Shown here piece after piece: positions 15,889-38,310 of a stretch of 49,147 nucleotides of DNA; positions within the stretch are counted from its first letter, which is position 1; the number at the start of each line of letters is the position of its first letter. The notes beneath the pieces are model-generated. The model saw nothing but the letters and a program-made list of their open reading frames with translations, was not told where the DNA came from and searched no databases. The position numbers and the translations under genes were made by a program. Source of the DNA: Chiloscyllium plagiosum (taxonomy: Eukaryota). The stretch spans positions 49,727,266-49,776,412 of the forward strand of contig NC_057721.1 in the NCBI RefSeq assembly GCF_004010195.1, given 5' to 3'.

Positions 15889-16789
15889 ACAAGGTCATGT
15901 GTTCAGTGATACTGCTTGGAAGTAGACATGTTGCAGTGATTGGCACAGTAAGGCCTGATTGGCCATCTAGATGCCACCAATCGTATGCAAAGTCACATTG
16001 CCCTTATCTGGTGCCAACAAACACTTTTTCTGCAGAGAGATGAGCGCACAGCTATGCCATCTGCTATTAAGGCATGTCTAATTACTAAACCACAGAGGAC
16101 TATTACCATCATTGGTAGCCTGTTCACTACATCACTTGCGCTTGTTTCGAGCCCCTCTATGGGAAATTGAAATGTTGATTTACTAGGATAGTGTTATGGA
16201 ATAGCAAGGAGGGCACCTTTCCTACAGCTAGGTCACAAAATACAATTGTGTGTTCTTGACTACAGATTTGAGACATCTGTTTCAGCCGTTTATTTGTGAT
16301 TATGCAGCTATTAATTTTTAGAACCTCTTACGATGGTGTATTATATGACAAAGCTGTACAAACTCTAGAAAATCTTAACAAGGTTTCCATAGCTGCTCTG
16401 CCAAATGTGACATCTGCTGAAGTAACCAGAAATATAATGATTCAATCAAAAGTTTAAAAATACTTAGTCATTACTCCACACGCAAAACTGTGTAAACATG
16501 GAACATATTGCTCATTAAACCCTTTACAAATTAAAAGTCATTTTTAATTTTCTTGACATACAAATTAACTACCAAGTCAAAATTCTATAAGTCTCTGCTT
16601 CTGATGAGTTCTAAATAGATTGACAAGTTGACAGATTGACATTTATCTTTGTCATATACTTTAAAAACATTTGGGCAGTGAGATTTCTTGTATTGTCAGC
16701 AGAGTCCAATGTTAGAACAGTACTCAGGGTTTTGATTTAACATCATTAATCTATTTTCAAGAAGTTGTAATAACTTTGTTAAAATAATA

Positions 16790-16996
16790 GCTGAAAAAGT
16801 GTTGCTGGAAAAGCGCAGCAGGTCAGGCAGCATCCAAGGAACAAGAGAATCGACGTTTCGGGCATAAGCCCTTCTTCGGCTTATGTCTGAAATGTCGATT
16901 CTCCTGTTCCTTGGATGCTGCCTGACCTGCTGCGCTTTTCCAGCAACACATTTTCAGCTCTGATCTCCAGCATCTGCAGCCCTACTTTCTCTCAAC
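16790..16996. mobile_element. Palindromic Penelope-derived insertion with 14-bp TSD
   Basis: About 80-bp inverted arms; ttgttaaaataata duplicated at 16776-16789 and 16997-17010. Confidence 0.85.
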
Positions 16997-17394
16997 TTGT
17001 TAAAATAATACACAGCAATTTAATTAATAAGCTTCTGCATTCACATAATGCCTTTGACATTTTCTGGATGTAGCTATTATGAATGATTTTAAGATAAGCA
17101 ATTTCCTCTGGTAACCAACGGTCAGGGACTTCAAATGGGAAATTGAAATGTTGATTCAAAAAGGGGCAACAGTTTGGGAGAAATGTAAGAAGGAATATTT
17201 TTCATGAGAAAAGCTGTTAAGATCTGGATCACAGTGCTAAAGTAGAGGTTTTTATTTAATTGTACAGCATCAAACCTTCATCAACCGATCAAAACAAAAC
17301 ATTCAAAATCACATATAATTCAAATATTTTTAGTCGTCTAAAGCCAGTGTTCCTGATAAAATAATTTGGCAAGTATTGTAACAAAGTAGCTCAC

Positions 17395-17474
17395 AAAACG
17401 TTTTGCCGTAGTGTATTGAGCATATTGTACCACTGAATCATTTTCAAACTGGCTTCAGTTACAAGGTCAAAGGC
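17395..17474 (-). CDS. Candidate 80-nt internal exon (AFDLVTEASLKMIQWYNMLNTLRQNV)
   Basis: Acceptor cttttacattcag, donor gtgagc; only one reading frame is open; its phase-2 end fits the phase-2 acceptor at 14509. Confidence 0.25.
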
Positions 17475-17559
17475 CTGAATGTAAAAGTAGCTGTTGAACC
17501 ATCCAATCCCTCAGCAAAGAAAGAGGCAATTCAGTATATCAGGCCTACATCAGCACTTT

Positions 17560-18000
17560 GAAAGGGTTTTTCAACTTAGTCCCAAACTCAGCCATTTTCC
17601 CTGTAACACTGCTAATGAATCATCTTCAATTACATGCTCATTTGAATGATTCCACAAAAACTGATTCCATCACCCTTCCAGGCAGTGTGATCCAGATCAT
17701 AACAGCTTTTCTCATGAAAAATAGTCCTTCTTACATTTCTCCCGAACTGTTGCCCCTTTTTGAAGTCCCTGACCGTTGGTTACCAGAGGAAATTGTTTAT
17801 CTTAAAATCATTCATAATAGCTACATTAGATTTCCACTTAATCTCCTCTGCTCCAAGTACTGCAAATCCCACTTGCTCCAGTCTCTCTTAGAAACGGAAC
17901 ATCATCATCATTTGTATTATCCTGGTTAGCTGCTTTTGTACCCTCTCTAAAGCCTTGATATCCATTCTGAATTGGATTGTACACAATACTCCAGCTGAGG
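17560..18000 (-). mobile_element. Degenerate CR1 LINE 3' fragment
   Basis: Similar to 12660-13300 (catcacccttccaggcagtg, cacttaatctcctctgctccaag, tacacaatactccagctgagg). Confidence 0.65.
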
Positions 18001-18309
18001 TTTGTAAAGTTGAGAGAGTTGTAAAGAAGAATTCCTTCTCTTGGAATGTGGCTAGTGTTTAGAATGCTCTCTTTTTGAGAGCAGTGGAGGTTGGGTCATA
18101 TTGAATTGAGAGTTGGTTTGACGTATGAGGGCATTAAGGGCTGTGGAGAATATGCAGGAAAGTGGAGTTAAGGCCATTTATTGCCTGGCACGAGCAGGTT
18201 TGAGCAACAGTCTGCTCCTGAACAATTTGTTACATTGTATTCTTTTGTCATTCTCTCTTTGCATGTCTTCTACCCCTTTCAATGTTCCCCTGCACTTCCC
18301 CTGCTATCA

Positions 18310-18565
18310 TGGCAGATGGTAGCATTTGAATTCAATAAAGAACTGGAATTAAGAGTCTCAGGGTGACCATGAATCCCTTGTCAATTGTTGGAAAAAACCC
18401 ATCTGGCTCACAAATGTTCTTTAGGGAAGGAAACTGCCAATGTACCTGGTCTGGCCCAGGATGTGACTGCAGACCCACAGCAATGTAGTTAACTCTGAGC
18501 AATTAGGAATGAACAATAAATGTTGGCCTAGCCAGTAATGTCCTCACCCCATGCATTCTGTAAAA
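18310..18565 (+). mobile_element. Second tRNA-type SINE family, 3' part
   Basis: Shares tttagggaaggaaactg...tggtct...atgtgact.cagacccacag.aatgt.gtt.actct...gcaattagg.atg...aataaatg with 39755-40050. Confidence 0.7.
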
Positions 18566-19489
18566 AAAAAGGCTATGTATTCTGCCTGGATTTGATTATA
18601 CTCTCTGCCTGACTTTTGGCATAAGCCACCTTTTATGGTTGTGGTTCTCTTTCTCTGTCAAGAAGAAAGTTCAAACTTTGGATGACCCATCTTCTTCCTG
18701 AAGTGAATGCCCCTGGCTGGTACCCAAACTATCTCCTGCTGTCATTCTCATTTACAGCTGAACTTCTTTTTGATTCAGGTTGTACTAGATTTATCTGAAG
18801 TTATTGGAACGGGCTTTGACTGGTTCGATATTTTGGTTTGGATTTTCTTGTCCCTTTCTGTAAGCACATTAAAGCTGATGATATGTTGATCATTGTTACC
18901 ATGTTTCAGTCTGGCTCAAATAGCTTGCAGTTGTCTGACTTCACTTTCGAAAGCTAGATTTCAGTTGGTCCCCTTTCTCATTGGACTGGAAAATAACTGA
19001 TTGAGAAAGTTCCTTTGTGTAGGTTTTAAGATTCCTTCATCCTCCTTGCACTTCTTTTTGAGTATTTTTTAAGTATACTGTTTAAGTATTTAATGTTTAC
19101 CAGTTATACACGGTAAATTTGAGCTTTTAATTAGTTAAAGAATGCGTCACTGCCAGGGCCCGTTCTTAATATGTAATTTATGACTTATGATTATTAAGAA
19201 TATTATATCGATTTTTTTTCAGTCAATTACTTCAGCATTTATGACGATACCAACAATAATTTATTTCCCTCTTCTTTCATCTCTCCATACTACATTTGGC
19301 TGAAGATGTCAGCAACTATCATGTCTATGTGAAATTTTTAAAAAGCGATGATTAGAAGTGAACAGAATGGCAAGGGTGTTAATGTTGACTAGATTTCACC
19401 ACATTTGATTTTTCATAAAGGATTTTAATGGCAGATTGCATTTTTAAGTTTACTGAGTACGCTCAATTGAATCTAGATCCCTGTAGATC

Positions 19490-20370
19490 GTAGGACATGT
19501 CAGTTAAGAAGACTTACGGGATACTAGCTTTATTAGCTGAGGCAGGGAAGTTATGCAGGAGTTGTATAAAACACTGGTTCACCCATAACTGGAGTGTATA
19601 TGCTTTCTGGTTATCACATTATAGGAAAGATTTTAAAGTGAGAGGAGAGAGATTTTAAAAAGATATAAGAGGCAAATGTTTCACACAGAGGGTGGTTCAT
19701 GTGTGGAATGAACTTCCTGAGAAAGTGGTGGATGCGGGTACAATTACAATGTTTAAAAGACATTTCAATAGATACATGAATAGGAAAGGTTTGGAGCGAT
19801 GTGGGCCAGGAGCAGGCAGATGGGATTAGTTTAGTTTGGGATTATGTTCGGCATGGACTGATTGGACCGAAGGGTCTGTTTCTGTGCTGTATGACTCTAT
19901 GTGAGTGCACTAGAGAATGTGTGGAGGAGATTTACACATTGCTGCTGGGGCTGGAGAGTCTGAGCTAAGAGGAAAGATTGGATAGGCTGGGGTTGTTTTC
20001 CCCAGAGCAACGAAGGTCTAGAGGAGACCCGATAGAGGTGTATGAGATTATGAATGGCAGAAGTAGAGTTGATGACTTTTTCATTACGCACAAGCATAAA
20101 ATTAGTGGGAAAGTATTTAAGGTAAAAGGTAGAAGGTGAGAAGGAGAGTTGAGGAGAAATATTTCAACCAGAGCGTGATGGGAATCTAGAATTCACTGTC
20201 TGAAAGGGTAATTGAGTCAGAAACTGTCATAACATTTAAACTATATTTGGATAGTCACTTGCATTGCCATAGGCTCTGGGGACATAGGCCAGAAACTGGA
20301 CAATGGGATTAGTATAGTCTGATCTTTGACTGGTACAGACAGGATGGAACGAATGGCCTTAATCTATGCT
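19490..20370 (+). mobile_element. Old CR1 3' fragment with a better-preserved CR1/HER1 3' end nested at ~19631-19900
   Basis: Outer copy runs ...cacattataggaaaga|...|tgtgagtgcactagagaatgtgtggaggagatttac; the inner segment is a complete 3' end finishing in tgtatgactcta. Confidence 0.8.
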
Positions 20371-20538
20371 GTAAGTATCTGTGAATTGATTTCCATTACT
20401 ATTTGGCTTTGAATAAAATGTAAGTGGTAAAGAATATTTGGCCTTGTACAGTGGAACGCTGATTCATATTTCAAAATTTCCATGAACCAAAAACGTAAGC
20501 AAATGGACGTCTTCACATAGAAAATAAGGGCAAGCAGA

Positions 20539-20560
20539 ACTTCCGGGTCGTACGGACGCC
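20539..20560. promoter_or_regulatory. Consensus ETS site (CCGGAAGT on - strand) in a small CpG cluster; candidate promoter
   Basis: acttccgg at 20539-20546 continuing as gtcgtacggacg: four CpGs in ~15 bp of otherwise CpG-poor DNA; donor-like acag|gtatgt at 20690/20691. Confidence 0.4.
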
Positions 20561-21732
20561 TCAATGCACACCTGCACCCCAACATATCCTGGTGCCATTA
20601 ACACAGATGCAGTACCAGCCGTGGTTTTTGTAAATGGCTTTATCCTTTTAAACATTTATTTACGAAGAATTTGTGCTGAAGTATTAACAGGTATGTTTGA
20701 CAGGAAAATATTATACATTATTCTGTTGAATGCTGTGCAAAATGTTTAAAATGGCAGTTATTTGGGTGCTGTAAAATGGTTTCGAAATCGAAAATTAAAA
20801 CGTGCAATTGTAATGTTTCTTGGAAACCTATATTCCCAATGCTTATTACTATACTTTAAAATATGAAAGAAGTATATTTTTGTGTGCAAACAAATTAAAA
20901 TACATATTGTAGACGAAACAATGTAATTTAACAGGAATTTACGATACTTGACTAACAGGAAACAGCACAGTGGGTGTTGACTGAAAATGGTTTAGGTTTT
21001 TAGTTTCCACTCAGCTTAACAAAAATATTCACTTGTTGTCTATTGATTTCAAAAATGCTCATGAATAAGATGCAGGCTCCATGTGCTCTGTCACAACTAC
21101 TTTGAGCAATGGATTGTGAATAGTTGCGGTATTTCTAAGTTTAAGATTGAAGGATTGTGCAGCCAAATTAAAGCCAGCAGTTGTTATATAGAAAAATCTT
21201 GTAAAAGATATTGTTCAGTCTTCTCAGGTAAGTAATTTTTTTAAAAAATTCTTAATCAACAAGTATTTGTTTTAGGACATGGTGACATTACTAAATTATA
21301 TCCCAGATGTAGGGTAGTTTAGGTATTGTTGAATATCTTTTGTGTTATAATTTATCAAGTTAGCCTTTTATCAGAAATGATACATCTTTAGAAAGAATTC
21401 AGCTACAGGAAATACGTGAATGTAATTTCTTCTTTTTCAGAAAATTGACAAAATTTCAAATTAGCCCATTAGGAGCTCCTTGCTCTATAAAACAAAGACT
21501 GGGGTTCAAAGCCCAGTTCTGGATTTGTTTAAATTGATGAATTTAAGATGTCAGCGATTTTTATAAACCGTTGACAAAATCACCGAGGAAATGGAAAGGA
21601 GACCATATCAGAAAGAAGTAAATTCTAGTCAATTCCACTATCTCCATTCACAAAGATGCTGAGCATGGGATGGACAACATCAGGTTTTTAAATGATGTGA
21701 AATGAAGTAGCCAGAAGTCACTTGAAAATATC

Positions 21733-22125
21733 AGCTGAGACTCAGTTGGTAGCACTTTTGCAGAATGTCAGAATGTTGTGGATTCAAGTCCACCTCCACC
21801 CAAGACCACGAAAGTCAAGGCTGTTACTCTGCTTCAATACTGAGGAAGTTTCACTTTATTAAAGGTGCCATGTTTTGGCTGAAATGTTAAACTGAAATTT
21901 TGTTTGCCTCTTGGGTGGATGCAAAGGATATTATGACACTGTTTTGAAAGGGAACAGGAAGTGTATCCTGGGTGTCCTAGCAAATATTAACTCACAATCA
22001 ATATCACAAATATCACCTTCATGTGCTCAACTTGACTATTGTGTTTCTTACATTCCAATAGTGACTGCGTGCTTTAGGACACCCTTGGTCGCTCATGAAA
22101 GCACTACATACATACAGGTCATTAT
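21733..22125 (+). mobile_element. DeuSINE (SacSINE1/AmnSINE-like), diverged
   Basis: tRNA-like head (actcagttggtagcac...ggattcaagtcc) and Deu-domain-like core (aggtgccatgttttggctgaaatgttaaactga...gggtgtcctagcaaatatt). Minus-strand pieces at ~32220-32400 and ~36195-36410. Confidence 0.65.
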
Positions 22126-22210
22126 TTCTATATCAAGAAATCCAGATAAAAAATAGAATTTTCTTTAGTGAATGCAATGTTTAAACTTGGACTGGCAACG
22201 TACTTATTTA

Positions 22211-22427
22211 GGGGAGAAAGTGAGGTCTGCAGATGCTGGAGATCAGAGCTGAAAATGTGTTGCTGGAAAAGCGCAGCAGGTCAGGCAGCATCCAGGGAAC
22301 AGGAAAATCGACGTTTCGGGCATAAGCCCTTCTTCATTCCTGAAGAAGGGCTTATGCCCGAAACGTCGATTCTCCTGTTCCCTGGATGCTGCCTGACCTG
22401 CTGCGCTTTTCCAGCAACACACTTTCA
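22211..22427. mobile_element. Palindromic Penelope-derived insertion with 16-bp TSD
   Basis: Near-perfect inverted arms of ~90 bp; gcaacgtacttattta at 22195-22210 and 22428-22443. Confidence 0.88.
22335..22375 (+). ncRNA. Minimal hammerhead-ribozyme-like motif
   Basis: CTGAAGA-A-GGGC-TTAT-GCCC-GAAA-C-GTC: CUGANGA and GAAA boxes, 4-bp helix II, palindromic ACGT in place of helix III, GUC site. Helix I pairing is weak. Confidence 0.55.
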
Positions 22428-25319
22428 GCAACGTACTTATTTAAACCACCAGTTACTTTTAGCTTGATGACAAATTCAGAATTCTCATGCCAATTCTTTC
22501 TTTAAAAATGTGAGCAGACCTGGGCAGTGGTGGAGAAGTGCATGATAGAAATCTAAAATAGACAAATATCCAGTGCTCAGAATTTTGCCTGTGGTTGGGT
22601 AAAGGCAGAATTTGGTTGAATTTCTGGTGAGGGATTGTAATTTAGTTGCACTGACTTTTCTCTCAATCCACTGGATGGACAGTTCTGACAAGAGAGAACA
22701 TGTTCTGTCTGCCCCACTCAACACCAAGTCAAGAAGAGTTGCAGCTCTCCCACTCTGGGCTTAGTGAAGGCGCAAAGATCGCAAAGCTCAATGGTAACTG
22801 ATGACTGGGTTATCGAAAGGCCCTGAGAATCCAGAGAATAAATACCAAAATATTTTGATTCTGTCCACCCGGATTCTGTGATTCTTCCTCTTGGGGCAAC
22901 AGGGAACTACAGCCACCTCATCCAGCTGCATCATAGTGATGAATGACCCTAAAAGACTCTATTCTTGGCTTTGGAGCTGGGGCACTGCAGAGCCATGGTG
23001 ATGAACAGAATTTCTATTCTACTACACTTCTGGCAGTGTCATTAGTCCAGGCTCCAGATTCCAGATCTTCTGTTTAAAAAGGTTTCCGTGGGAAACCAAA
23101 GGACAGCGTCCCATTTGGGATGACTGCAGTTGAATTTGTGAAGATGGATCGGTTTTGTATCTTCTTTTCACTGCAGACAGTGTTTTCCTGACAAGAACCT
23201 AACATAAGATGGTACAGAAACTCTTGATACCATATGATAGTCCCATTTTTTTGTGGGCTAATTGAAATGTTATCAATAGTGATGAAGTAAAATTGTTGAC
23301 ACAGCAACACAATCCATCCACCAAATTATTTATTTTCTATCAGCTGAATGCCTAGGTTCAAATTTGTTTTGAAAAACTACAAATGTACGTTTAAGTGAAA
23401 AAAAAAGAACAATATCTTGTTCTTTACTTGCTGGTTATTTTAATATTGAGTGTTTTAATTTGATTGGGCATTGAGGATGCTGTTTTTGGGGTTTTTTCTT
23501 GTCAGTTTTCCATAGTGTCTCAACTATAGTTGTGTAAATAAATATTCTATTTCCTCTGTAGAAAATAACTGAGCAACAGATTACAAATTTAAAAATACAA
23601 GTCAAATTAATATATACTCCTGTAATATCAATAGTTGTTTGTTTGATATAAAGACATTTTATTTGGCTTCAACTTATTCTCAACCACTGTAATACTGTTA
23701 AGAAAACAGTAAAATAGTAGCCTTTTTATGATTGTGTTTGCTGCAGTTTTCAATTATGTGCACCATGACTCTAAGTGAGAGTCAGATTTGTAACCGAATA
23801 TGAATTATGTCCATTTTTAAACTTGGTCACCACAACGCCATTGTTGAGGGTCAAGATGTATGCACTGCTGTAAAAGCAGATGCGTGGAATGGTTGCTTTG
23901 CAAACTAGGTGGGTGCCTCAGTCTTTCAACCAGCTCTGCACTTAGGTGGTAGATGAAACTATGATAAGATGCAGAGCACCATTACTGCACAGGAAATCCA
24001 CAAGCTTAGAGGTAGTTCCGCTCATATAAACTTGCCGCAATGAGATGCTTTTGAAAGTTCTTTTAGACCACACTGAAAACATACTGCAAACAGCGAGCAA
24101 TGCAGTATGCCACAAGGAAGATGAAGTTCACACAGTTTCAAAGCATTTTGTGATAAAACTGAGTGAAATTCAGATGGAATAGGTGGTTATAGATATTGGA
24201 ACTAGAATGTTGATAAGGTGACTTTCTGATTCTGTTAAAATGTGGATTGAAGGAAGGTAGAACTGAAAAGTATCTACCGTTATCTATCGTTAACAACTCT
24301 TTAAAAACTGATTTTGTCTAAAAAAAAGTTAAATTCAGGTCAAATAATTAAAAGATTAGGCTGGAAACTAAATTAGACTTGGAGGAAATATTAGCAATGG
24401 GATGGGAATTGACAAGATGCATGATTAAGAAAGTGGTTGATGACTGCAGTTTTCACATAATCCACATTCATGCCCAAGTAAAGGGACACCAGTAACATTG
24501 CAATTAACATGGGACCAGGATGAGGAATTGAAGTGTCTCCAACTGAATGGGAGCAGAACTAAGGGATTAAGGTTAGGGAGAGAGGGGAGGTTGGGCCATT
24601 ATAGACAGTGTGTCTGGCTGAATGGGAAGGGAATGATGGATTGTCAAAGTGAGCGAAGCGGCTACACAGTTGGAAGAAATTCAAAAGCATTTTAAACTTG
24701 ATACTGGAGTTGAATTGGAGGAGTACAATGGAGTGTAAGGGATATGAGAAGGTGGTAAGTCTTCAGTTTAAAGTGGAAAAGTATAGGCTAAGGAATTTGA
24801 GAAGGTAGTAAATCTTCAGTTTGCCCATGCCCTTGAAAAATGGCCGTGGAGTAGAGCAGGATATAGCAGAAGATTTTTGGAGATAAGTCCTTTCTAAAGC
24901 AGTTAGAATCTTCATGGTAACCTCAGCAAATGTGGGAAGGACTCGCCTTTGTAACCTCATCCCTCTCCTGATATGTGGTGACTCTCAGGTTAAACCAATC
25001 TCTCTTGAATCAGAGATCAACCCTATGGTCCACTCGGACTATGACTGGGCTGACTGTCACACAAAGAGCTACTCAAAGAATTTCCCGGTAATACATACTG
25101 AAACCAATATTTCAGGGGAGGATCCAAAAGCATTCTGGCAGATAATGAAGAAATTTACCACAGAAACAGCTCAAGAAAAACCAAGGAACTGTGAATTTTC
25201 AATAATTGTACATTAGTTAAGTCTGAATGCAGCCAACAAAGCAACTACTCAACATCAAACTTGGGTTAAAAAGTTACAGTTAAGACCAACCAAAGGAAAC
25301 TAAACTATATTTTATTTTT

Positions 25320-25325
25320 ATGTGT

Positions 25326-25364
<39 letters not shown>

Positions 25365-25366
25365 TG
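25320..25366. repeat. (TG)n microsatellite, interrupted
   Basis: Direct reading of the sequence. Confidence 0.97.
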
Positions 25367-25719
25367 AATTTAAACGCCATATACTTGATGTTTTATTATT
25401 TTCCTTGAGTTTAACAGCTAAATTTGTTCTGTCTTGTGACTGAAGAAATTGTTGTTCATTGGCTTCTAATGGTTTCCAGAAAATAAATAATTCACAAAGA
25501 AAACCAAAGAACTGTGGTGGGAAAGTTCTGCAGGTCAGGCCGCATCTGTGGAGAGAAAGCACAGTTAACGTTTTGGGTCCAGTGACCTTTCTTCAGAACC
25601 CAGTTAACGACATTTTAGTTGGAGAGAGATATATTGTCTTCTAAAAAACAGCCTTTGTCGTGCCCAATGGAAGAAATTGAACAAAAGGGAGCCAATTAAC
25701 CCCTTCTCATCTGGTCATG

Positions 25720-27065
25720 GTACTTTCCAGACATGGTAACTGCTGAATTCTAAAATGGCAAATGGAGCTATGTTGTTCAAGAAAGGATAGACAGAGAAAC
25801 CTGAGAACTGCAGGCCACTTAGCCTGATATCTATTATTGAGAAAATGCTGGAATCTTGTTGTTAAGGAAGTCTTACTAATACACTTAAAAATATCAGACA
25901 AAACCAACATGGTTTTATAAAGTGACTATCACCCTCTGCTTCCTGCCACTCCACCAATTCTGGATTCAATATGCCACATTTCCTTGGATCTCATTGGCTC
26001 CTACCTTCACTATCAGACTCCCATTCAGATTTTATCTAAAGTTTTGCTGAAGTCCAATTAGATTACATCGAAAGTATTAACCTCATCTGTATGCCATTTA
26101 TTTTATTTGTTACCTCTTCGAAGAACTCAAATCAAGTTGATCAGACAAAACCTCCCCTTAACAAAACCCTGCTGACTGTTCTTGATTAATCCTTGTGTCT
26201 CCATGTGCAGATTAATTTTGTCCCTTGAATTGTTTCCATTGTTTCCCCACCACCAAAGTTAGACTGACTGGCCCATAGTTTCATGATTTATCCCTTGCTC
26301 CTTGCTAGAATAATTGCACCATATAGTGTTTTTTGAGGATGGTATTAGTAGATATAATACATTTGGATAGCTAAAAAGTCACTTGATAAGATGTCACACA
26401 GAAAGGCAATATGCAAGACAAGGCTGCTGGAGTTTTGGCGATAAATTAGCTTTACAGAGAGGATTGGTTAATAGTCAAAAACAGAAGAAAGGGATAAATG
26501 AGGCCTTCAAGTTGGCAGGCTGTAACAAGCGGATCAATGCTGGGGACTCAGTTATTCACATTCCATTTTTATAACCTAGGCAAAGAGGCCAAGGTGATAT
26601 ACCCAAGTTTGTTGATGATACAAAGTGAAGTGAGAATGCAAGCTGTGAGCAGGCCACAAAGAGTGAGAGAGAGGACGTGAGGTGAATGAACAGCAAGGTG
26701 ACAAAGGGAAAAGCTGTTGGAGTCTGAGTAAATTGGCTCCATATTCTGTGGAGTTTAGAAGAACAAGAAGTGATGTCATTGGAACCCTTGCTGGGAAATC
26801 TAGAACCTGGGGGTACAATCTTGGGTTTAGTGAGTTATTTAGTTCAAAAGCATTAAACGCTGGCATTATTAGTGATACCCATGTCTATGAAAGACTAAAT
26901 GAAAAGTAGTTAAAGAAGATAGAGACTTTTGATCTCTCAATAAATTGAGCGATATGAGGAACAGGCTGGAAAATGCAGCTGAGAGAAACAATCAACATGA
27001 TCGTATTGAATGATGGATAGTGTTGAGAGGCCACTAGGATTACTACAGTTTCTGATATTCTTATA
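25720..27065. mobile_element. Block of decayed CR1 RT fragments in both orientations
   Basis: + strand LFKKG...KPENCRPLSL.S..EKMLE at ~25770-25860; minus-strand RT piece at ~26010-26320; further + strand pieces to 27065. Confidence 0.7.
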
Positions 27066-27632: not shown

Positions 27633-28021
27633 TATTGTTGATTCTTAATTACCCTTGGGGCAATTAAGGATAGGAATAAATGAAAGCCAAGGCAACAATG
27701 CCCACATTCCATGAACAGTTTACTAAAGAAAAGGATAACGTGGGAAAATGTGAAACCATCCATTTTGAGAGGAGTAATAAAATATGTTACCTAGATGGTG
27801 AAAGATTGTAAAGCTCTGACATGCAGAGGCATCTAGTGTGCTTATGTATGAGTTGCAAAAGCTAGTATACTAACAGGGCAAGGAATTGGGAAAGCTATTG
27901 TTGATTCTTAATTACCCTTGGGGCAATTAAGGATAGGAATAAATGAAAGCCAAGGCAACAATGCCCACATTCCATGAGTTGCAAAAGCTAGTATACTAAC
28001 AGGGCAAGGAATTGGGAAAGC
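27633..28021 (+). repeat. Interleaved exact duplications A..B-A'-B'
   Basis: 82-bp A at 27633-27714 and 27896-27977; 48-bp B at 27848-27895 and 27974-28021. Confidence 0.92.
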
Positions 28022-28269
28022 CATTAGAATGTTCTCAAACATTGCAAACTGAATTGAATAGAAAAGTAGGTGATTATTCAGGTATACAGGTGAGACCATA
28101 TCTGAAGTCTAATGTGCAGTATTGGTCACCTAGTTTAACTGCATTTGAATTAGTTGAAACAATGGAAAAGGACAATATAGGTATTGACATCAGCCTGGAG
28201 GACTGAGATATTAGAAAATAATAAATTAAAAAAGACACTAAGATAGAGAGAAAATACTAACAGGTTTAG

Positions 28270-29650
28270 CAGCCTTTAAAGTGACGAAATCCTCAGGTGA
28301 GATATATCCTAGACTGTTGAGGCAAGAGATGTCAGGGACCCTTGCAGTAGTTTTCAAATCATCCCTAGTAACAGGTGAGGTGCTAGAGGAGTGGTGGACT
28401 GCTAATGTTGGCCCATTAATAAAATCAAGGAGGGGATAGACCAGGAGCTTACAAGACAGTCAATCTGTGGTGGGGAAGTAATTAGAACTAATTCTGACAG
28501 ATTATATCTGCAGTTGAAAAGATGAGGATTAACCAAGGATAGTCAGCATGGATTGTTATGAGGAAATTGTGTTTGGAAAATTTGTTCGAATTTTTTGAGG
28601 TGGTAAGTGGGAGCATTGACAAGGATAATGCATTTTATGTGATCCTCATGGGCCTTAGCAAAGCTTTTGATAAAGTTTCTCATGGCAGACCAGTCAAGAA
28701 ATAAGAGCCCAAGGATCCAAGACAAACTGTCATGTTGGATGCTAAATTGGTTGAGAGGCAGGAAGCAGACAGTAATGAGAAAGAAATGTTTCTGTGACTG
28801 GAAGTCTGTTAATAGTGGGGTTCTGCAGAGCTCAGTGCTAGACCCTAGCTGTTTGTGGTGTACTTTAATAGCCTGGACTTAAATATAGGGAGGATGATCA
28901 AGATATTCAGACAGCAACTAAGGGGGCCTCTTAGAGGTGTATCAGACTGAGGGTTATAGACAGGGTGATCAGTGATGCATTTTTTCAATTAATGGAGAGG
29001 TAAATAACCAATATGGCATAGCAAGTACTGTATAAGGCTAAGAGGAGAATATTTTTTTCACTGAGGGAGTGAAATTCACTTTTTGAAAGAGATGTTGAAT
29101 TATGATCTCTGATAACATTTAAGCAGTATTTATGTGTTCACTTGTCATAGTCTCCAGGGTTATGAGCGAAGAACTGGAAAATGACATTAGTGTAGTCAGA
29201 TCGTTGCCTGATGTAGATATAATGGGCCGAATGGCCTCCTTCTGTGTCTATCAGTCAAAATTTTACCAGACCAGGACATGGAATGGATAGGATGAGCTTG
29301 TATCCATTGGAGCATTAAACAGAAGCAGTGACACTACTGAATCATGTAAGATCCTGAGGTATTGTGATGGGGTGGGTTTGGAGAGGATGTTTCCTCTTTA
29401 ACAGAAACTCGAATTAGGGCTTACTGTTTTAAAATGAGGAGTCATTTATTTGAATCAGACACTACTCTTTGGAACTCAAAATACAATGGGAGCAGAATCT
29501 TTCAATTTTTTTCGCAGAGATGGATAAATTCTTGGGAAAACCGAGAGTGATGGGTTATCAGGTTTAGATAGGAATGGGGATTTGAGGTAAATAGCAGCCA
29601 TGACTTTATTAAATAGCAAAGAGAGCAGTGAATGACCTACTTCTGTATGT
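28270..29650 (+). mobile_element. Decayed CR1 ORF2 fragments and 3' ends
   Basis: EEWWTANV, SQHGL, SKAFDKVSH, WMLNWLRGRKQ, SGVLQSSVL motifs with stops and frameshifts. Confidence 0.8.
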
Positions 29651-29889
29651 TTGGATGTAATGAAGTGTGAACATTAAATATCTTTTTACTTCATCAGTTC
29701 TTGAACTGGGACATTATTACAAATAGAATCCACCAATCTATTTAGAACTTCACTTCCATGGTCTGTTAGACACCCAATTTCAACTGATTGTCATATTTCT
29801 GCTGCTTTTGGTAAGTAATGCAGATTATGCTGTGCGGATTCAATTGAAAACCTGACACAGGTTTATGTAACAGTTTAGACTACAACTCA

Positions 29890-30212
29890 GGGCAGCACAG
29901 TGGCTCAGTAGTTAGCACTGTTGCCTCACAGCGCCAGGGACCCGGGTTTGATTCCCACCTCGGGCGATTGTCTGTGTGGAGTTTGCACGGTCGCCCTGTG
30001 TCTGTGTGGGTTTACTTCGGGTGCTCTGGTTTCCTCCCACATTCCAAAAGATGTGCAGGCCAGATGAATTGGCCATGCTAAACTGCCTAAAGTGTTAGGC
30101 ACACTTGCCAGGGGTAAGTGTAGGGAAATTAATGTGGGTGGTTACTCTTCGGAGGGTCAGTGTGGACTTGTTGGACTGAAGGGCCTGTTTCCATGCTGTT
30201 GGTAATCTAGTC
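29890..30212 (+). mobile_element. HE1-type SINE
   Basis: gggcagcacagtggctcagtagttagcactg head with A/B-box-like motifs; tail ttggactgaagggcctgtttcc. Confidence 0.92.
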
Positions 30213-31668
30213 TTGCCACGACTGATAACTTACGCATCCACCTAGCATTCTTCTGCTGGACTGCATATAGCAGGTAGTTTCAACCTGATCCCTGGCTCAT
30301 TAGCATATTCAACTCTTAAAGTAACACACTTTGTAAAACCAATAACACACATTGACCATTCTCAAAAATGGAGTGGTAAAATCCACACATTAGGGTCAAT
30401 TCTTCCTGCAAAAGAATAGCAGAGTGAAATTCCTATGTGACACCCCAATGGTTATTATCATGTCACTTTTTGGCCTACTCCCTCCTAGAACAGAAACTCC
30501 CCAGCTCATTCAATCATCCTTGATGGTTAACTGGTTCCTTTCTTAAGAAATTGTATTTCAGTTAGTAATGGGTTAATTATAAACACCCTATCTTTGAAGT
30601 AGTTTTTCTAATCTCTCTATGCAACTGAAGGCTCAAATACCTTAGGAATAGAATTATAACAGTGTAGCCCTGTATTCCTGAACCATATCACCTTCAAGCA
30701 AAACTCAGCATAGGGATCATTGACTCATTGATTTTGCCCTGTATTTTGTAAAAACAGAAGGTAGATTGAATAGGGCAGATACATTCCACTACTACCAATT
30801 TCAAGAAGTGTAATATCTGAACAAAATCTTTTTTACCCAATTTGGCAGACAGATATTTTGGTGCAAAATTATTTAAGTACCTGATAATTCAATCTCGAAA
30901 ACATTTTCCGTATGTTCTTCAAAAGCAACTAAATTGACAGGGTATAAATTATTCAAAACCTGAAGGAATCATCATTTTAAAAGATTCTTGAGCAGAATTC
31001 GAGATCGAAGGCGATTTTAACAAAATAAATTTGGTGGTCCTCCTTTGAATTATATGCATGTAAGAATCGGAATGAAAGATTTATTTGGGCCATTAATGTC
31101 ACTTTTCATTTTGGATACTTTAAAGAAGGTCATCCAAATCCCATACATTTAAATTGGATGACAACAATTTTGATTTTCCCTCTCAGGATTTTCCCTCTTC
31201 AAACCAGTGCTTCCTATGGGACTCATCTCCTGAAACAAACACTCATCTCCTCAAACCAAGAATTCTGCCTCCCAAGAGTTAATAGTCACAATTGAAGTTA
31301 TCCAAGTGAGCTGCAGAATATTCCCCAACTCCAGAAAAGTTAAGGATTATGTGAAGAGCTTCCCAAGTTTCTATTCCAAGAGAACAAAACCCTAAAGTAA
31401 AATGATGCTCCAAGTACTGGCCTCTGGTCCAACAATCAGATCCTGTTCAGCTGCAAGATCTAGCTTTGCACCATTGAGCAAGGAATTAATGCACCTCAAT
31501 ACATTCCACCCTCAAATAATGAACAAAGGAATACAGCTCGAATATATGTGAACTTCAGATGGGTGGATTCATGTACACCAATGTGTAGCACTGTGAAGTC
31601 GAATACTGGCACTGATTCCCAGCAGACCTTGCACCAAGCCACTAGATTTTACTTTCCTTGAATACAAA

Positions 31669-31712
31669 TGCCATCCCCTATTTCTTACATTGCCATCCCC
31701 TATTTCTTACAT
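31669..31712 (+). repeat. 22-bp perfect tandem duplication
   Basis: tgccatcccctatttcttacat x2. Confidence 0.9.
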
Positions 31713-32575
31713 TCTTACTATTTTTCCCAAACCCCCAACCCCATGTGCCCCCATTTTAATGTTTGAAACTTTGTGATCCTTCAGTGAGAACCTAGAGAAT
31801 GGGTTGGGGGTGCAGGGCCAGTGACTGGGTTATGACAGCTGTCTTAGAACTCTACATCAGCTATTCTGTCCAAGTGCTTAGGACCCCAACATTTCAGATT
31901 ATCACCCCATTTGGGGTTCCAACACCCACTTTGGGAAACAATGTTTTACCCATTCTTTCTCTTCTTTGCAACCTCACTGTTTGTGAATCAAGACTCTTCA
32001 GAGATTGTCACACTCTACCCCAATTATTGATAGTACCCCAAAACTGCAGAATTTCACATCTTCCTAAGCCCCTTCATCCTATAGTGTTGGTTTTCTGAAA
32101 TCATTAGAAGTTAAATGTGTATTTCCAGTTGTACTATGCAAAACACTGTAACCTGTTTAAACATAATGATAAGTAGCACAATAAACCCAAGATAACCCAT
32201 TTTAGATATTACTTGAAATATAAATGTTAGCTAAAGCAAGAAAATCTTCCTTCCTCAACAGACATTTGGGATGCTTTACAATCATCTGAGGTGAAAATCA
32301 TGATCTCAGTTTAACGTCTCATCTGGAAGACCCTCTCTGGTAGCATAATGTTCTCTCAGTATTTTGCTGAGGTGATTGCCTTAATTATGTTCAATGAATT
32401 CCTAATATTTATACTGCTCCATTTTACTTCAGAATTACAATGTTTCCTAGAATTATTCAATTTATTGGAAGATTAACCCCTCACTCTGTCATTGAGAGCT
32501 ATAAATGAGAAGGAAAATGTTTATGAATAGATAGTTTGGGAAATTATTTTAGGAGAAGGACAACTACTACACTGT

Positions 32576-32890
32576 GGGCGGCACAGTGGCACAGTGGTTA
32601 GCACTGCTGCCTCACAGCGCCAGAGACCCAGGTTCAATTACCGCCTCAGGCGACTGACTGTGTGGAGTTTGCACGTTCTCCCCATGTCTGCTTGGGTTTC
32701 CTCTGGGTGCTCCGGTTTCCTCCCACAGTCCAAAGATGTGCAGGGTCAGGTGAATTGGCCATACTAAATTGCCCGTAGTGTTAGGTAAGGGGTAAATGTA
32801 GGGGTATGGGTGGGTTTCGCTTCGGCGGGTCGGTGTGGACTTGTTGGGACGAAGGGCCTGTTTCCACACTGTAATGTAATCTAATCTAAT
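32576..32890 (+). mobile_element. HE1-type SINE, full length
   Basis: gggcggcacagtggcacagtggttagc (A box), ggttcaattacc (B box), conserved core, LINE-like tail and (taatc)n end. Confidence 0.93.
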
Positions 32891-33149
32891 ACAATGATAA
32901 TGGAAAAATCATGCAAACATGAATTTTTGGGGAATGTAAATTGACAGGATGGCTGCTTAAGAAAGAAGGGAGTGTGTATACATGCTGAATTTTGGGCTGC
33001 TATCCAAGTGGACAAATGAAAATTGAGATAAATAGATACAAATAATGCCATAGAATATATCAAGCAAGTTCTCTCACGCTGTAATAAACTGGAGCCAATT
33101 CCATTGATAACTAGACTTACCACTATCTTCCTGGAGTAGAAACAATGGA

Positions 33150-35490
33150 AATATCATGGAAAAACATTTCCATCAATGGAAAAAGATGAGTTGATTTGGA
33201 AGAGTCTGCAGCTTTTTGAAGAAGTAACAGAAAACATCGAGGGTATCTTTGTTGACATTTTAAACATGAATTTTTAGAAGGCATTTGACACACAACAGAC
33301 TTATGACAATAGAGCTAGGTCATGGAATAAAAGGGACAATTGTAACCTGCATACAAATTTAACTGAAGGATAGGACACAGAAAGAATTTGTCAATGGAGT
33401 TTGTCTAGGCTGGAGGAAGATTGGAGTGGAATTCTCCAGGGGTCAATATTGGGACTCTTGTTTTTCCTGATATATAGTAATAATCAGGACATTTGTTTGC
33501 AGGGGACAATTTCAAAGTTTGTAGATGACACTAAACCTGGGAGAATTGTAAACTGTTAGGAGGACAGTGTGGAGCTTCAAAATACATTAAAGAGTACAAT
33601 GGAACCTTGATCAAATGGGCCAATTGGCCAAGGAGTGTCAGACAGACTTTAGTTTAAATAAATGTGAGACTTTGCATTTTGGAAAGGCAAAGCAGGGCAG
33701 GATTTATACACTTAATGGTAAGGCCCTGGGGAGGGTTGCTGAACAAAGACACTTTGGGATGCAGGTGTATGGTTCCTTGAACGTGGGGTCCCAGGTAGTC
33801 AAGGTGGTGAAGAAGGCATTTGCCCTCACTGGTCAGTGCATTGAGTGTATGAGTTGGGAAGTCATGTAGCAAATGTACAGGACATTACTGTGACCACTTT
33901 TAGAATACTGCGTTCAATTCTGGTCTCCCTGCTATAGGAAAGATTTTGTTAAACTTGAAAGGTTTCAGAAAAAAAGATTTATAAGGATCCTGCCTGTGTT
34001 GGAGGGTTTGACCAATAGGGAGAGGCTGGATAGTTTGGGGCCTTCTTTCTTGGAGCATAGGAAGCTGAGAGGTGGTAAAATCATGAGGGGCATGGGTAGG
34101 GTGAACAGCAATGTCTTTTTCCCAAGAAAAGGGTGGTTCAAAATGAGAGGGCATAGGTTTAAGGTGAGAGGGGAAGATTTAAAAGGGATCTAAAGGGCAA
34201 GTGTTTCATGCAGATGGTGGTGCGTGTATGCAGTGAGCTGCCAGAGGGAAGTGATGGAAGTGGGTACAATTACAACATTTAAACGGTATCTAGACGCATA
34301 CATGAATAGGAAGGATTTAGAGGGATATGGGCCAAGTGCTGTCAAATGCTGACTAGATCAGTTTACGATATCTCATCGGCATGGACGAGTTGGACAGAAT
34401 GTTCTGACTCCATGCTTTAAATTTCTATAGGAGAAAGGGAGGTCTGCAGATGCTGGAGATCAGAGCTGAAAATGTGTTGCTGGAAAAGCGCAGCAGGTCA
34501 GGCAGCATCCGGGCAACAGGAGAATCGACGTTTCGGGCATAAGCCTTCCTGAAGAAGGGCTTATGCCCGAAACGTCGATTCTCCTGTTCCCTGGATGCTG
34601 CCTGACCTGCTGCGCTTTTCCAGCAACACATTTTCAGCTCAGTTTAAATTTCTATACCTCTGTAAGTTATTGGAGTAAGTGGAGAGGTAGAGAGTGGACA
34701 GCAGCTGAGGTTCAGTGCAGTGAAGTATGAGGTGATGCACTTTGGCAAGAAAAACATTTAAAAAACAATATAAAAATCTAAAGAAGGTGCAGGAGCAGAG
34801 GGGCCTGGATCTATAATTGCACAAATCAGTGAAGGTAGCAGGGCAGGTGAAGAGCAGTGGATAAAACATACAGTGTTGGTGGCTTTATTAATAACAGCAT
34901 AGATTATAAGAGTAGGGAGATGATGTTGAACAAGATACTTGTTAGACCTCAGCTGGAATGTTGTGGGCAGTTGTCAGGGCTAGAATATGGGAAAGATTGA
35001 ATACATTGGAGAGAGTGAGGAAGTGATTTACAATAATGGTTCCAGGAATCAGAAATTTCAGTTATGAGGATGAATTGAAGAAGTTCAGATTGTTCTCTTT
35101 AGTGAGAAGAAAGCTGAGGGGAGATTTGATAAAGACTTTCCAAATCATGGGGAGTCTAAATAGAGTAGATAGGGAGAAAATGTCCCTGTTCATAAATATA
35201 TACCCTCAAATTCCTTTTTTTTCTTTTAAAGTGATATGTGAATGAAACAAGCGTGATGAGGAAAAAGCTTTTTCACACAACATATAGTTAGGGTATAGGA
35301 TGCACTGCCTGGAAGTGTCATGGAGACAGGTTCAATGGAGACATTCAAAAGAGCATTGGATGATTATTGGGATGGAAATGACATACAAGGAAATGGGGAA
35401 AAGGCAGGGGATTGGCACTGGGTAATAGAACTGGTGTAGGCACGATGGGCCAAATCTTCCTGCACCATAATCATTCTGTGATTCTGTAAT
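33150..35490 (+). mobile_element. Composite CR1 LINE relic (older RT region with a nested CR1 3' part at ~33600-34415)
   Basis: KAFD, QGSILG, SKFVDDTK, KCETLHFG, LEYCVQFWSP motifs; two separate 3' ends (~34410 and ~35485). Confidence 0.85.
34430..34642. mobile_element. Palindromic Penelope-derived insertion with 14-bp TSD
   Basis: Inverted arms; tttaaatttctata at 34416-34429 and 34643-34656; intact ctgaagaagggcttatgcccgaaacgtc core. Confidence 0.88.
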
Positions 35491-38123
35491 AGACATGAGC
35501 AGAATGAAAATAGTTTAATTTGGGTGCAGTACCCCATTGGTCCTGGTGGCAGTGAAGTTAGGATAATCAAGATTGATGCCGAGAAATGATTGAAGGACCT
35601 GTTGCCTCGCTTTTCTAATACCTTTGAAGCCTTGTCAAAAACTAAAGTGGGATTCAAACCATAGATTTTGATCTATTTTGCCATAACTATTCCAGTGTCT
35701 TCAGCCTTGACCAGGATAAAAGAAAAACAATATTGAGATGCTGAGTAGTATGTTCAATTCTGACTGAGCAACAACAGTTTGAGAAAATTAGGATTATAAT
35801 TAGCAATAACTATAATCAGTGAAAATTGTGTGTGGTAGAACACAAAAAAATCAACAGTTTTGAGGAGATGGTAAACTGGCAGAAGGCTTGTTTCACTGAA
35901 CTGTAAAGGGGTCCAATGCTGGTGGATTACAAGCAAAGATTTGCTGATGAAATAGTAAAGGAACTTTGAGAGATCTTCAAAGAGCTGACCACTTGTGCAC
36001 AAGTTAGATACAGTCCTATGAGGAGTTAAGGCAAGACATTGAAAGCTAGAACTCCTTGGACAATTAAGAAATTAAAATGAAACAAGAAAATAATGCTTGT
36101 GATAAATATCTAATGCATAATAAAATAGCAAATCAAGAAGAATACAGCAAATATAGATTTGTAGGGAGAATGAAAGGAAAAGAAAGATAAGTTACAGAAC
36201 TTTCATGACCACAGGATACCCCAAAGTGTTTTACAACCAATGAAGTATTTTTGAAGTATAATCACCATTATAATGCAGGAACCGATTTATGCACTGCATG
36301 CTTCCACGAACAGCAATGTGGTAATGATCAAGTTTGCTGTTTTTCTGATGTGCCTTGAGGAATAAATATTAGCTAAGTCTAACTTCCTTGCTCCTCCTCA
36401 AACTGACATCTTCTGCTGTTGGGGCTGCTGCAGGATAAGGGCAAGTTTAATTCCATCTGTGCTTGTTGTGTAATTTGGACGGTTACCTGGTACTGGTTCA
36501 CATGTTGTACGTTGACTCAGCATCATGGCTACTATGTGACATCTTTATTCTCCTAATCCTTTCATGAGCTGCCTTCTCTCCCTGGAAAGACAGCAACAAC
36601 TCCCCACCTGGCTGCCATTTGTATTTCACATTTGGAGAAATTGTTTGCACTGGCAGGAAGGCTGGTAACCAAAGGTCACAAACTTAAGGCAATTGCCACA
36701 AGAACCAGAGGGAAGATTGTTAAGATTTTTTAATAGTTAAATTACTATGCAAGGGGGAGGAATTTGCAGGGGTACAGAGAAAGCACAGACAAATGGGCTA
36801 ATTGTACAGCAGTTCCAAAGGTACAATGAACCAAAAGACCCCTTTCTGGGCAGTATGATTTGGAGTATCAACATGAGCAGATGAAAGCTATGTCTAACAT
36901 CATCTATATGTTGAAGAAAACAACATCAGTTAAACATATTACTAGGCGCTTTACCGGACAGGTTTACATAAAGGATCACAAATTAGAAAGACTAGCAGTG
37001 ATCAGCCAGAGACATAACACTTGTGTTTTGTAAAGGATGTGGTCGATTGAGTCTGAAAAATAAATCCATTGTTCAGATTTCCGGAACAGCTTTAACAGCA
37101 TTTGTTCTCTGTTCATACAACCACTTGATATGTGTCTTTCTGCAATGTCAGTTACCCTATATTTACAGTGTATTTATTCAAAATGAATACATGTCACAAT
37201 TCTATATACAATAAATAGCTGACAGTTTTTCACACCTTATTTAATTGAGGGATTTCAATGATATAAACTGTAGGAGAGAAGCTCAATCCTATTCCAACAT
37301 TAACTGGGTTACAGTTTTGGAACTTCAGCCTTTGCTTTAATAAGGTGGTTCTGTTGAAGGTAAATGTGCTCAAACATTCATCTGGAAGAAGGCTGATGGG
37401 CAGGTTGGCTCAATTAAAGTAATAACAATGTTCTGAGAGAAGAGACGGGAGCTAGCAGTACAATGTTACCCTACAATGTTACATAAACATCAGTCAGCAA
37501 ATTCAGCACTTCCATATACATTTGAAGCTAATTTAAATCTGCTTCTTTCAAGTAGAAACATAGGAAATATTAATTGGGGTACATTTGATGAAAACCGACA
37601 GTAAATATCTGTCCAGGCATATAATGTTCTCAAGTTTGGTCAGACAGAAATAAGGTTAGAGTGTCTCTGAGCAACTTCCCTTAGAATATGTCCCAAAATA
37701 TTAATGCATCCAATATCTTATAGTCCTATCAAAATCTGCCTATCCTTCTCCTGATGCCTTTGTACATTCAGTTTGGTCCTTTCATATCTTTTCCCAGCTG
37801 ATGCTACAGTAGGTTTCTGAACTCCTGGTTTGAGGAAAACAAAATTGGGCAATATTCATCGTAATATTTGGTGATTCCAGCTGGAATTCAAATGTGTGGG
37901 CACACTTATTCTTCTCACACTGCACTTCTTGTGAGTTTTACTTGCTCTAAGTCAGTAATGCATCGGCAGTTGAATAGTCACCACTGAGGTTTACATGTGA
38001 ATAGTGATCATTTCATGACAGACAGGAGGATGACTGCTCAGAGTCGCCATCTGTTAAGAGAGGAGAAGAAAGATTAGTTGTAGAATAAGAAGATTTCAAG
38101 TGAACACCCTAATTACAATCGTC

Positions 38124-38310
38124 AGAAGTGGGTACTGTAGATGCTGGAGATTAAAGTCAAGATTAGAATGGTGCTGGAAAAGCACAGCAGGTCAGGCAGC
38201 ATCTGAGGAGCAGAAAAATTCCTGATGAAGAGCTTTTGCCTGAAATGTCGATTTTTCCTGCTCCTCGGATGCTGCCGGAACTGCTGTGCTTTTCCACCAC
38301 CACTCTAATT
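38124..38310. mobile_element. Older palindromic Penelope-derived insertion
   Basis: Same arm family, more diverged (ctgatgaagagcttttgcctgaaatgtc); no clear TSD. Confidence 0.75.

Follow-up and report, generated by a model that had tools for sequence, protein, structure and literature searches.

Head-to-head mini-insertions of a Penelope-like element in Chiloscyllium plagiosum, probably built by reverse transcription from both target strands

Are the short palindromes of a Penelope-like element (PLE) in the shark Chiloscyllium plagiosum copies of a few palindromic masters, or is each hairpin built anew as it inserts? MITEs are likewise short, palindromic, abundant and without an ORF. The window analyzed here (the whole stretch of 49,147 nucleotides) holds four hairpins of about 200 bases, at 16790, 22211, 34430 and 38124, just where a preliminary description had placed them. 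They are confirmed as genuine insertions, each made up of two pieces of a PLE pseudo-LTR (pLTR) set head to head, and the genome carries the end sequence of this element tens of thousands of times over. Positions in the pLTR are counted from +1, the first C of a hammerhead core. Target site duplications (TSDs) at the four copies were called as the longest exact direct repeat across the flanks.

Copy 1 lies between exact 14-bp repeats (16776..16789 and 16997..17010); its short arm (16790..16877, minus strand) runs from about +91 inward to +3, and its long arm (16878..16996, plus strand) runs from +10 to the end of the tail, the two meeting at a blunt junction. Copy 2 has exact 16-bp repeats (22195..22210 and 22428..22443), a long arm (22211..22336, minus strand) from the tail end inward to +2, and a short arm (22334..22429, plus strand) whose last 2 bases are common with the TSD; the arms overlap by 3 bp (22334-22336). 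The A at 22336 is position -3, the putative 5' end of the template RNA. A descriptor scan places a minimal hammerhead motif at 22340..22367 on the plus strand (core, unpaired A, 4-bp stem II and GAAA), with the predicted cut after 22367. Copy 3, between exact 14-bp repeats (34416..34429 and 34643..34656), joins a long arm (34430..34545, minus strand) from the tail end inward to +10 bluntly to a short arm (34546..34640, plus strand) that runs from -2 to about +92 and holds the whole hammerhead motif. Copy 4, of an older sister subfamily, pairs a long arm that ends near +30 (38124..38219, minus strand, 76% to the reference) with a short arm from -3 (38218..38310, plus strand); its longest exact flank repeat is only 6 bp, so no TSD is callable, and the preliminary description had claimed none for it. 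The TSD lengths of 14, 16 and 14 bp given earlier for the three young copies, and a different centre in each of the four, are reproduced exactly. Two further family members, absent from the preliminary description, also lie in the window. One is a lone short-ended arm of the same family (3839..4210, minus strand, 372 bp, 89% to the genomic stretch L030) that runs into the 3' UTR and the end of the ORF, so that within the window, too, the arm is part of a longer element; the other is an unpaired arm of the older sister subfamily that starts near -5 (11899..11986, plus strand). Flank searches found no TSD at either.

The arm is the pLTR of a PLE with RT motifs, a Cys linker and a GIY-YIG domain. 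It is attached upstream to a reading frame with the Cys linker and GIY-YIG (L030) and downstream, via the tail, to an ORF start (L136), which disposes of the possibility, raised earlier, that it is never joined to a PLE RT/GIY-YIG ORF. The pLTR is found both after the EN (L030) and ahead of the ORF start (L136, L012, L101), a partial tandem, with the start ATG near +163. RT motifs are seen in L005 and L132 and GIY-YIG in L030, L136 and L137, all linked to the arm, and the pieces map in order on RT+GIY-YIG relatives of 800-900 aa. Pfam matches to GIY-YIG (E 0.0009-0.07) fall below the cut-off, and two short RT pieces are not recognized by Pfam on their own. A full-length autonomous PLE with the same terminus was looked for as the preliminary description had proposed, and none of 20 candidate stretches holds an intact full-length ORF; 17 of the 20 have assembly gaps, and their long "open frames" are mostly N gaps. 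A Cys-X4-Cys-X2-Cys linker and Cys/His residues visible in the translations are a Neptune-type feature: the accessible part of PMC8557442 defines Neptune by a CX2-5CxxC linker before GIY-YIG and a CCHH motif. In the literature consulted, the only PLEs reported from vertebrates are Neptune and Poseidon. The Cys linker is also common to Nematis.

A set of 53 young palindromes from the genome shows how regular these insertions are. Outer arm ends peak near +90 and at +125/126, about 35 bp apart, and 49 of the 53 have one long and one short end (the others being two long/long, one short/short and one intermediate); among the 52 that can be classified, such pairing has a binomial probability of 1e-11 against free choice. 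The claim that one arm always extends some 30 bp further stands as an asymmetry of about 35 bp, not as "always". TSDs of at least 12 bp flank 45 of 53, compared with 1 of 400 mismatched-flank pairs used as the null, and range from 12 to 19 bp with a mode of 14-15. Two positions 3' of the TSD edge, the base is a C in 26/45 cases on one strand and 22/45 on the other, against a background of 20%. Most palindromes (47/53) are minis, as described earlier for the population as a whole. That picture of inverted termini alone is nevertheless too simple, with arms of up to about 730 bp (e.g. L135) and with 98 of 204 young arms unpaired by the pairing rule used, 58 of these 98 having no TSD in a flank search.

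The probable explanation, and the best reading of these data, is twin priming on a capped 5' leader followed by end joining. The endonuclease/RT of the element would cut the two strands of the target at nicks staggered by 13-17 bp. Each nick then probably primes cDNA synthesis on the RNA leader, at one or other of two fixed internal start sites separated by about 35 nt. That both ends are nick-primed and RNA-templated, not made by fold-back, is very probable: the arm geometry and the symmetric target bias support the earlier proposal that each hairpin is built at insertion by reverse transcription from both strands. The template is likely the 5' pLTR copy in a transcript whose first base is A(-3), 3 nt ahead of the core. 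The two cDNAs would then reach the capped end and stop there at lengths of about 93 and 128 nt, which would explain why minis predominate. Long arms would arise from a read-through tandem transcript that is primed at its downstream pLTR. On balance we favor both primers sitting on one RNA, with the cDNA from the long site displacing that from the short site. The two cDNA 3' ends, of the same polarity, would then with good probability be trimmed and joined by host end joining, using 0-4 bp of microhomology or short locally templated inserts. Of the 31 junctions that are blunt or overlapping, 18 have an overlap of at least 2 bp, where simulation gives 16%.

An unlikely variant of this scheme has the two nicks prime on two separate RNAs, held by an asymmetric dimer with one subunit for the long and one for the short site. 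It would allow fully overlapping arms without strand displacement, the protein of an anole PLE is predicted to be dimeric (PMC11167929), and the two long/long palindromes and the short/short one are in keeping with it. At three variant sites, however, both arms of an insertion carry the same subfamily variants in 46/48, 43/47 and 42/42 cases, a high concordance that speaks for one RNA, with the few discordant cases (2/48 and 4/47) on the side of two. Shared variants do not prove a single RNA, because conversion, or a single source dominating at any one time, could also produce them. The long arm is the more shortened in 28 cases against 14 of 42 (Wilcoxon p 0.011; one row of the inner-end table, C1 1358670, is mis-called against the trend), as if on one RNA, and some long arms, including two listed rows, end at or near the short start site, as a shared RNA would predict.

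Very improbable is self-priming, in which a single cDNA (or an antisense RNA) forms a fold-back at a short palindrome and serves as its own template. The accessible text of PMC3846280 proposes it for rotifer PLEs, it would account for junction microhomology and for the same variants in both arms, and 17 of the 49 long/short geometries are compatible with it. The other 32 are not, since their short arm extends further inward and holds sequence missing from the long arm, whose tail is in turn missing from the short arm; simple fold-back cannot make these, barring frequent later deletions in the long arm. Four clean cases, all TSD-flanked, have a long arm reduced to a tail stub of 21-46 nt beside a short arm that reaches inward to +1 or beyond, so that neither arm could have been the other's template. 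The equal target bias at both TSD edges also counts against fold-back, as do lone short-ended and lone long-ended arms, both of which are found with TSDs (the null was computed for palindromes only).

Still less credible is the copying of a few palindromic masters, MITE-like by a transposase or as re-copied transcribed hairpins, and the preliminary description had argued against it on the grounds of variable TSDs and centres. The young set bears this out: 47 of 53 junctions are distinct, which refutes master copying as the main route, and there is a continuum up to long ORF-bearing arms. The unequal ends, which differ by the tail and are not the terminal inverted repeats of a MITE, the TSDs of 12-19 bp where a MITE has fixed short ones, and the lack of a shared centre rule out MITE identity. 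Some secondary copying or recurrence does exist. An 11-nt junction insert is common to two copies at unrelated sites (2 matches genome-wide), and three pairs have similar spans of 153-154 bp. Five junction types recur 2-3 times each; two of the recurrent types carry different subfamily variants, and every one without an insert lies on 1-3 bp of microhomology.

The inner ends bear on what sets the junction. Among 194 scored arms, 71 end at -5..0, only 3 at -9..-6, and 11 in a second pile at -89..-60. Genome-wide, 27,107 exact matches reach -3 and 13,777 (main variant) reach -7; of the arms that get to -3, about half continue past -7. An extra C (G in the sense strand) directly after -3 is present in 4,426 matches. 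In listed stops read by eye, 100 per position, a C follows in 67 at -3, 17 at -2 and 20 at -4 (Fisher p 6e-13 for -3 against -2), and the excess at -3 holds (54/80) once 20 rows explicable by overlap with the other arm are removed. The context of A(-3) is pyrimidine-CA-pyrimidine, which resembles the Pol II initiator consensus. The inner stop likely marks the RNA 5' end; the extra base could alternatively stem from a strong pause of the RT, or from terminal addition once it reaches an uncapped end. An extra G is described as a mark of cap copying in L1 insertions in the available portion of PMC11702581. Raw RNA reads contain no point where many molecules begin, and 93% run into unlike sequence; they are uninformative on the start because they come mostly from scattered genomic copies. 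A splice acceptor was rejected as the cause, with a polypyrimidine-AG near -25 and only 1 stop in -24..-21.

Junctions had been placed at the ribozyme-like core, which holds in that they cluster just 5' of it and fails at the predicted cleavage site. The least plausible reading, that hammerhead cleavage forms the template 5' end and thereby sets the junction, has for it a motif with covarying stems at the hairpin centre (55 matches against 0-2 in five shuffles) and 10 of 194 arms ending at +28..+31, and it founders on a main stop some 31 nt upstream of the predicted cut, most arms crossing that cut, and ribozyme mutants that leave in vitro insertion unchanged (PMC11167929). The ribozyme is probably a bystander with no part in setting the junction. 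Its features (core, unpaired base 9/10.1, G-C pair 10.1/11.1, palindromic 15.2/16.2) match the list for minimal hammerheads in PMC4209133. In this subfamily stem I has no more than 2 bp and a mismatch, minimum-energy folds keep stem II and form no whole hammerhead, and RNA reads show none of its predicted cleavage ends. An Rfam search gives no hammerhead family and only sub-threshold miRNA hairpins; with such weak matches, these insertions are prone to misannotation as miRNA precursors as well as MITEs.

The inverted layout and the two start sites have precedents in print. Insertion units of EN+ PLEs, as the consulted parts of PMC3846280 and PMC8557442 present them, have an inverted pLTR, an optional one-sided tail of 30-40 bp and a TSD. 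Head-to-head layout, tail on one arm, TSD, 5' truncation, partial tandems and a hammerhead in the pLTR are common to both; in the shark most palindromes lack an ORF, TSDs are 12-19 bp where those of rotifers span 8-10 bp in the examples given, and the inner ends accumulate at a single base followed by an extra G. Those same portions ascribe inversion to self-priming and the tail to endonuclease resolution, whereas the shark data favor two primed cDNAs. The anole Poseidon protein PAc nicks and extends both strands in vitro from two internal start sites whose spacing equals the tail, with product length tracking the RNA 5' end, no need for the ribozyme, a start site equal on both strands and an AT-rich preferred nick (PMC11167929, 2024). 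The shark hairpins share with it the two starts spaced by the tail, a probable use of both strands, a similar hammerhead-to-start distance and a ribozyme that is probably not needed. PAc belongs to another clade without the Cys linker, its starts lie in the ORF rather than the 5' UTR, and in place of AT-rich nicks and starts independent of strand the shark shows a C bias and strict long/short pairing. That study calls the steps after initiation "yet to be validated"; in its main text and methods the two starts are not linked to each other in a single insertion, and run-off at the cap goes unmentioned. Non-LTR retrozymes (bioRxiv 10.64898/2026.07.22.740005, in the part available) are also short, non-coding, hammerhead-bearing derivatives of PLE pLTRs, and consist of head-to-tail tandem units with their own RNA; the shark copies are head-to-head or single, by-products with unique junctions. 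Twin priming in L1 resembles our model, according to the available portion of PMC11702581, in that the second target strand primes a second cDNA, TSDs are 12-18 bp, the junction forms by microhomology or inserts, and an extra G marks cap run-off. In the same account L1 primes first on poly(A) and then at variable sites, giving arms that barely overlap, whereas in the shark both sites are fixed, poly(A) is absent and the overlap of the arms is almost complete, hence a hairpin. A search of titles and abstract openings, whose reach stopped short of Repbase/Dfam reports, the 2005 and 2006 PLE reviews and supplements, found neither twin priming nor cap run-off for PLEs, nor these hairpins.

Twin priming in L1 was reportedly first described in a paper of 2001. 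For PLEs we suggest, quite tentatively, that it may be the normal integration route of EN+ elements: a dimer would nick the strands about 15 bp apart and start two cDNAs at fixed sites of one capped leader, the default product, with starts only about 93 and 128 nt from the cap, being a junk hairpin and full-length copies needing a read-through tandem transcript. If so, a single model would account for the tail and the inverted pLTR and for why partial tandems are needed, and so would bear on how PLEs form inverted ends, a one-sided tail and tandems. With its tens of thousands of independent insertions, the genome serves as a natural experiment in which fold-back and two-ended priming can be told apart; the insertions also reveal how far apart a Neptune-type endonuclease places its nicks and which sites it prefers, and they predict a transcription start to one base.

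The hairpins can also be used as lineage-specific presence/absence markers. The proposed test for empty sites succeeded between species only, as same-species contigs break at the copies. Single contigs of two related organisms skip 22195-22427 (233 bp, copy 2) and keep one TSD copy, that at 22428..22443. At copy 1, contigs of two related organisms match up to 16789 and then continue unmatched for another 80 and 88 letters, as would be expected of an empty site in both.

The four hairpins in the window, each made of two head-to-head arms, are a real by-product class of a known retroelement, and their two-ended origin is well supported. They lie at 16790, 22211, 34430 and 38124 (copies 1 to 4), where the preliminary description had placed them, and the target site duplications (TSDs) it reported for copies 1-3 hold as exact flanking repeats of 14, 16 and 14 bp; copy 4, which belongs to an older sister subfamily, has no callable TSD when its flanks are compared for exact repeats. 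In single contigs from sequencing runs of two related organisms (X13 and X16), position 22194 is joined directly to 22428, and because these contigs skip 233 bp and keep one TSD copy, copy 2 is shown to be a genuine insertion that duplicated its target site. At copy 1, the match to X13 and X16 contigs breaks off precisely at 16789, leaving 80 and 88 letters of contig, which fits a putative empty site in both organisms.

A 40-base word from the arm has 69,069 exact matches in the 3.56-Gb genome, and a word spanning the border of the tail, which only the long arm of a hairpin carries, has 23,496. Arms were sampled from 849 kb (821 kb non-N) in 13 regions, picked irrespective of the repeat except for inclusion of the window, and from the neighbourhood of 100 exact matches, the first ones listed for contig 1. 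Taking core identity of at least 88% as young (204 of 345 arms), 106 young arms form 53 palindromes and 98 are unpaired by the pairing rule used; a looser search, with no null model, gave a TSD of at least 12 bp for 25 of the unpaired arms, none for 58, and placed 15 next to gaps. The 16 young palindromes per 821 kb extrapolate to roughly 50,000-70,000 genome-wide.

Amplification as MITEs from a palindromic master, which the preliminary description had disfavored, is ruled out as the main route by long TSDs (12-19 bp at 45 of 53 young palindromes versus 1 of 400 shuffled pairs, and 14-16 bp in 34 of the 45) and by mostly distinct junctions (47 of 53 palindromes). Copying or recurrence of hairpins occurs but is minor, as shown by an 11-nt insert common to two sites with unrelated flanks, the only two in the genome, and by three spans of 153-154 bp among the matches listed. 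That insert is one of five recurrent junction types; the other four rest on overlaps of 1-3 bp, and within two of these the subfamily variants differ. The insert's carriers (L219 and L220, near 1.80 and 1.91 Mb of contig 1) are 114 kb apart, and one of them is long/long without a TSD.

Past the arm, several of the 30 best long-arm loci contain a 3' UTR and a reading frame that encodes both a Cys-X4-Cys-X2-Cys linker and a GIY-YIG motif; reverse transcriptase (RT) motifs are present in two loci (L005 and L132), and a third (L136) reaches the ORF start via the tail. Attachment of the arm to a Penelope-like element (PLE) frame, as earlier proposed, is thereby borne out. Because arm loci run into the GIY-YIG frame, and natural pieces align in order along full-length RT plus GIY-YIG relatives, the arm is the pseudo-LTR (pLTR) of a PLE that probably bears an endonuclease. 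The nearest named protein relative is from a bamboo shark (75% identity, covering 45% of the query), which points to a shark as the probable host. No intact ORF was found among candidate stretches, 17 of 20 of which contain gaps. Judged by its linker, a feature that a section of PMC8557442 uses to define Neptune, the source element is probably Neptune-like. A minimal hammerhead motif within the arm gives 55 descriptor hits in the sample versus 0-2 in shuffles, and the stems covary across families. Passages in PMC3846280, PMC8557442 and PMC8969392 already describe inverted pLTRs, one-sided tails and TSDs in PLEs, and part of PMC4209133 describes hammerheads within pLTRs. The same 849 kb hold three or more further hammerhead families, whose stems differ. 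In the window, another family that carries a hammerhead is represented at about 6640-6860 by an older palindrome of head-to-head arms, its centre likewise just before the core, and a lone arm from a similar family lies near 25512-25600.

With +1 assigned to the first C in the hammerhead core, outer ends (beside the TSD) are bimodal, with peaks near +90 and +125, and a long end is paired with a short end in 49 of 53 palindromes. The 35-nt difference corresponds to the tail already known from PLEs, which in vitro equals the spacing of two RT start sites; extension of both strands was demonstrated in the same work (PMC11167929). Fold-back of a single cDNA would also make a hairpin, but it cannot yield a further-reaching short arm when the tail is confined to the long arm, and the short arm extends further in than the long arm in 32 of 49 long/short palindromes; four clean cases with the long arm reduced to a tail stub of 21-46 nt also count against it. 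Later deletions could rescue fold-back, if very common. The two TSD edges share a bias: C stands two bases 3' of the edge in 26 of 45 TSDs on one side and 22 of 45 on the other, as expected if a single endonuclease specificity cuts either strand (the scarcity of G one base 3' of the edge is in part an artefact of TSD calling). This geometry, the stubs and the shared C bias support the earlier suggestion of priming from both target strands.

With two primed ends, both cDNAs were probably made on one RNA, with displacement, and the use of two RNAs is possible but less likely. Variants are common to both arms of an insertion at four sites (46/48, 43/47, 42/42 and 33/34; permutation p < 1e-4), a concordance also expected, however, from a single dominant source at a time or from conversion; three rarer sites are uninformative and one is weak. 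Truncation is more severe in the long arm than in the short one more often than the reverse (28 versus 14, p 0.011), and some long arms terminate at the short start site, in keeping with one RNA and displacement. The junctions, 31 blunt or overlapping and 22 with inserts, suggest joining that resembles microhomology-mediated end joining: overlaps of at least 2 bp occur in 18 of the 31, versus 16% simulated. Many inserts look like nearby element or target sequence, and a few are call artefacts or N.

Inner ends, at the hairpin centre, have a sharp upstream edge (71 of 194 at -5 to 0, 3 at -9 to -6) and a downstream tail of 43 at +1 to +15; only 10 fall at the predicted ribozyme cut, and 11 form a second pile at -89 to -60. 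Genome-wide, 27,107 matches extend as far as -3 and, for the main variant, 13,777 as far as -7, to which the minor variant (about 42 of 100 matches listed) adds some. C immediately follows -3 in 4,426 matches genome-wide; in by-eye counts of the first matches listed for contig 1 (100 for each position), C is the next base after 67 of the stops at -3, compared with 17 of those at -2 and 20 of those at -4. The surroundings of A(-3) resemble the initiator consensus. A capped transcript would start at -3, and both RT start sites would lie in its 165-nt 5' UTR, so both cDNAs would run off quickly. Transcription of Drosophila Penelope begins within the pLTR (a passage of PMC2377424), and part of PMC11702581 treats an extra G on the L1 sense strand as a sign of cap copying. 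Possibly the extra base comes instead from terminal addition, or the stop is a pause. An RNA start at -3 is a sharp prediction, open to test. We found no literature report of two starts coupled within one insertion, nor, for PLEs, of an argument against fold-back, a dyad nick bias or extra-base run-off; reviews, database reports and supplements may contain some.

Elsewhere in the genome, one TSD-flanked insertion (L101, about 2118-2726) comprises two tandem long arms and a short arm; the tandem arms both end near -62 and are connected by about 135 bp of ORF start, which looks like a template jump. At another locus (L022), a long arm is followed by many tandem repeats of a 30-bp piece of 3' UTR. 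Unrelated to the PLE arm, the window carries a nested inverted duplication (17068-17237 and 17682-17826; about 170 bp, 95-99% complementary, 444-bp spacer) whose arms differ by about 20 bp, and contigs of the related organisms break there too. Two further abundant repeat families lie in the window, one at 4200-5030, 19640-19900, 33600-34400 and 47000-47760, the other at 990-1100, 11250-11560, 15570-15890, 29880-30210, 32570-32870 and 38780-39060; these are presumably LINE 3' ends (likely CR1/L2-type) and a SINE.
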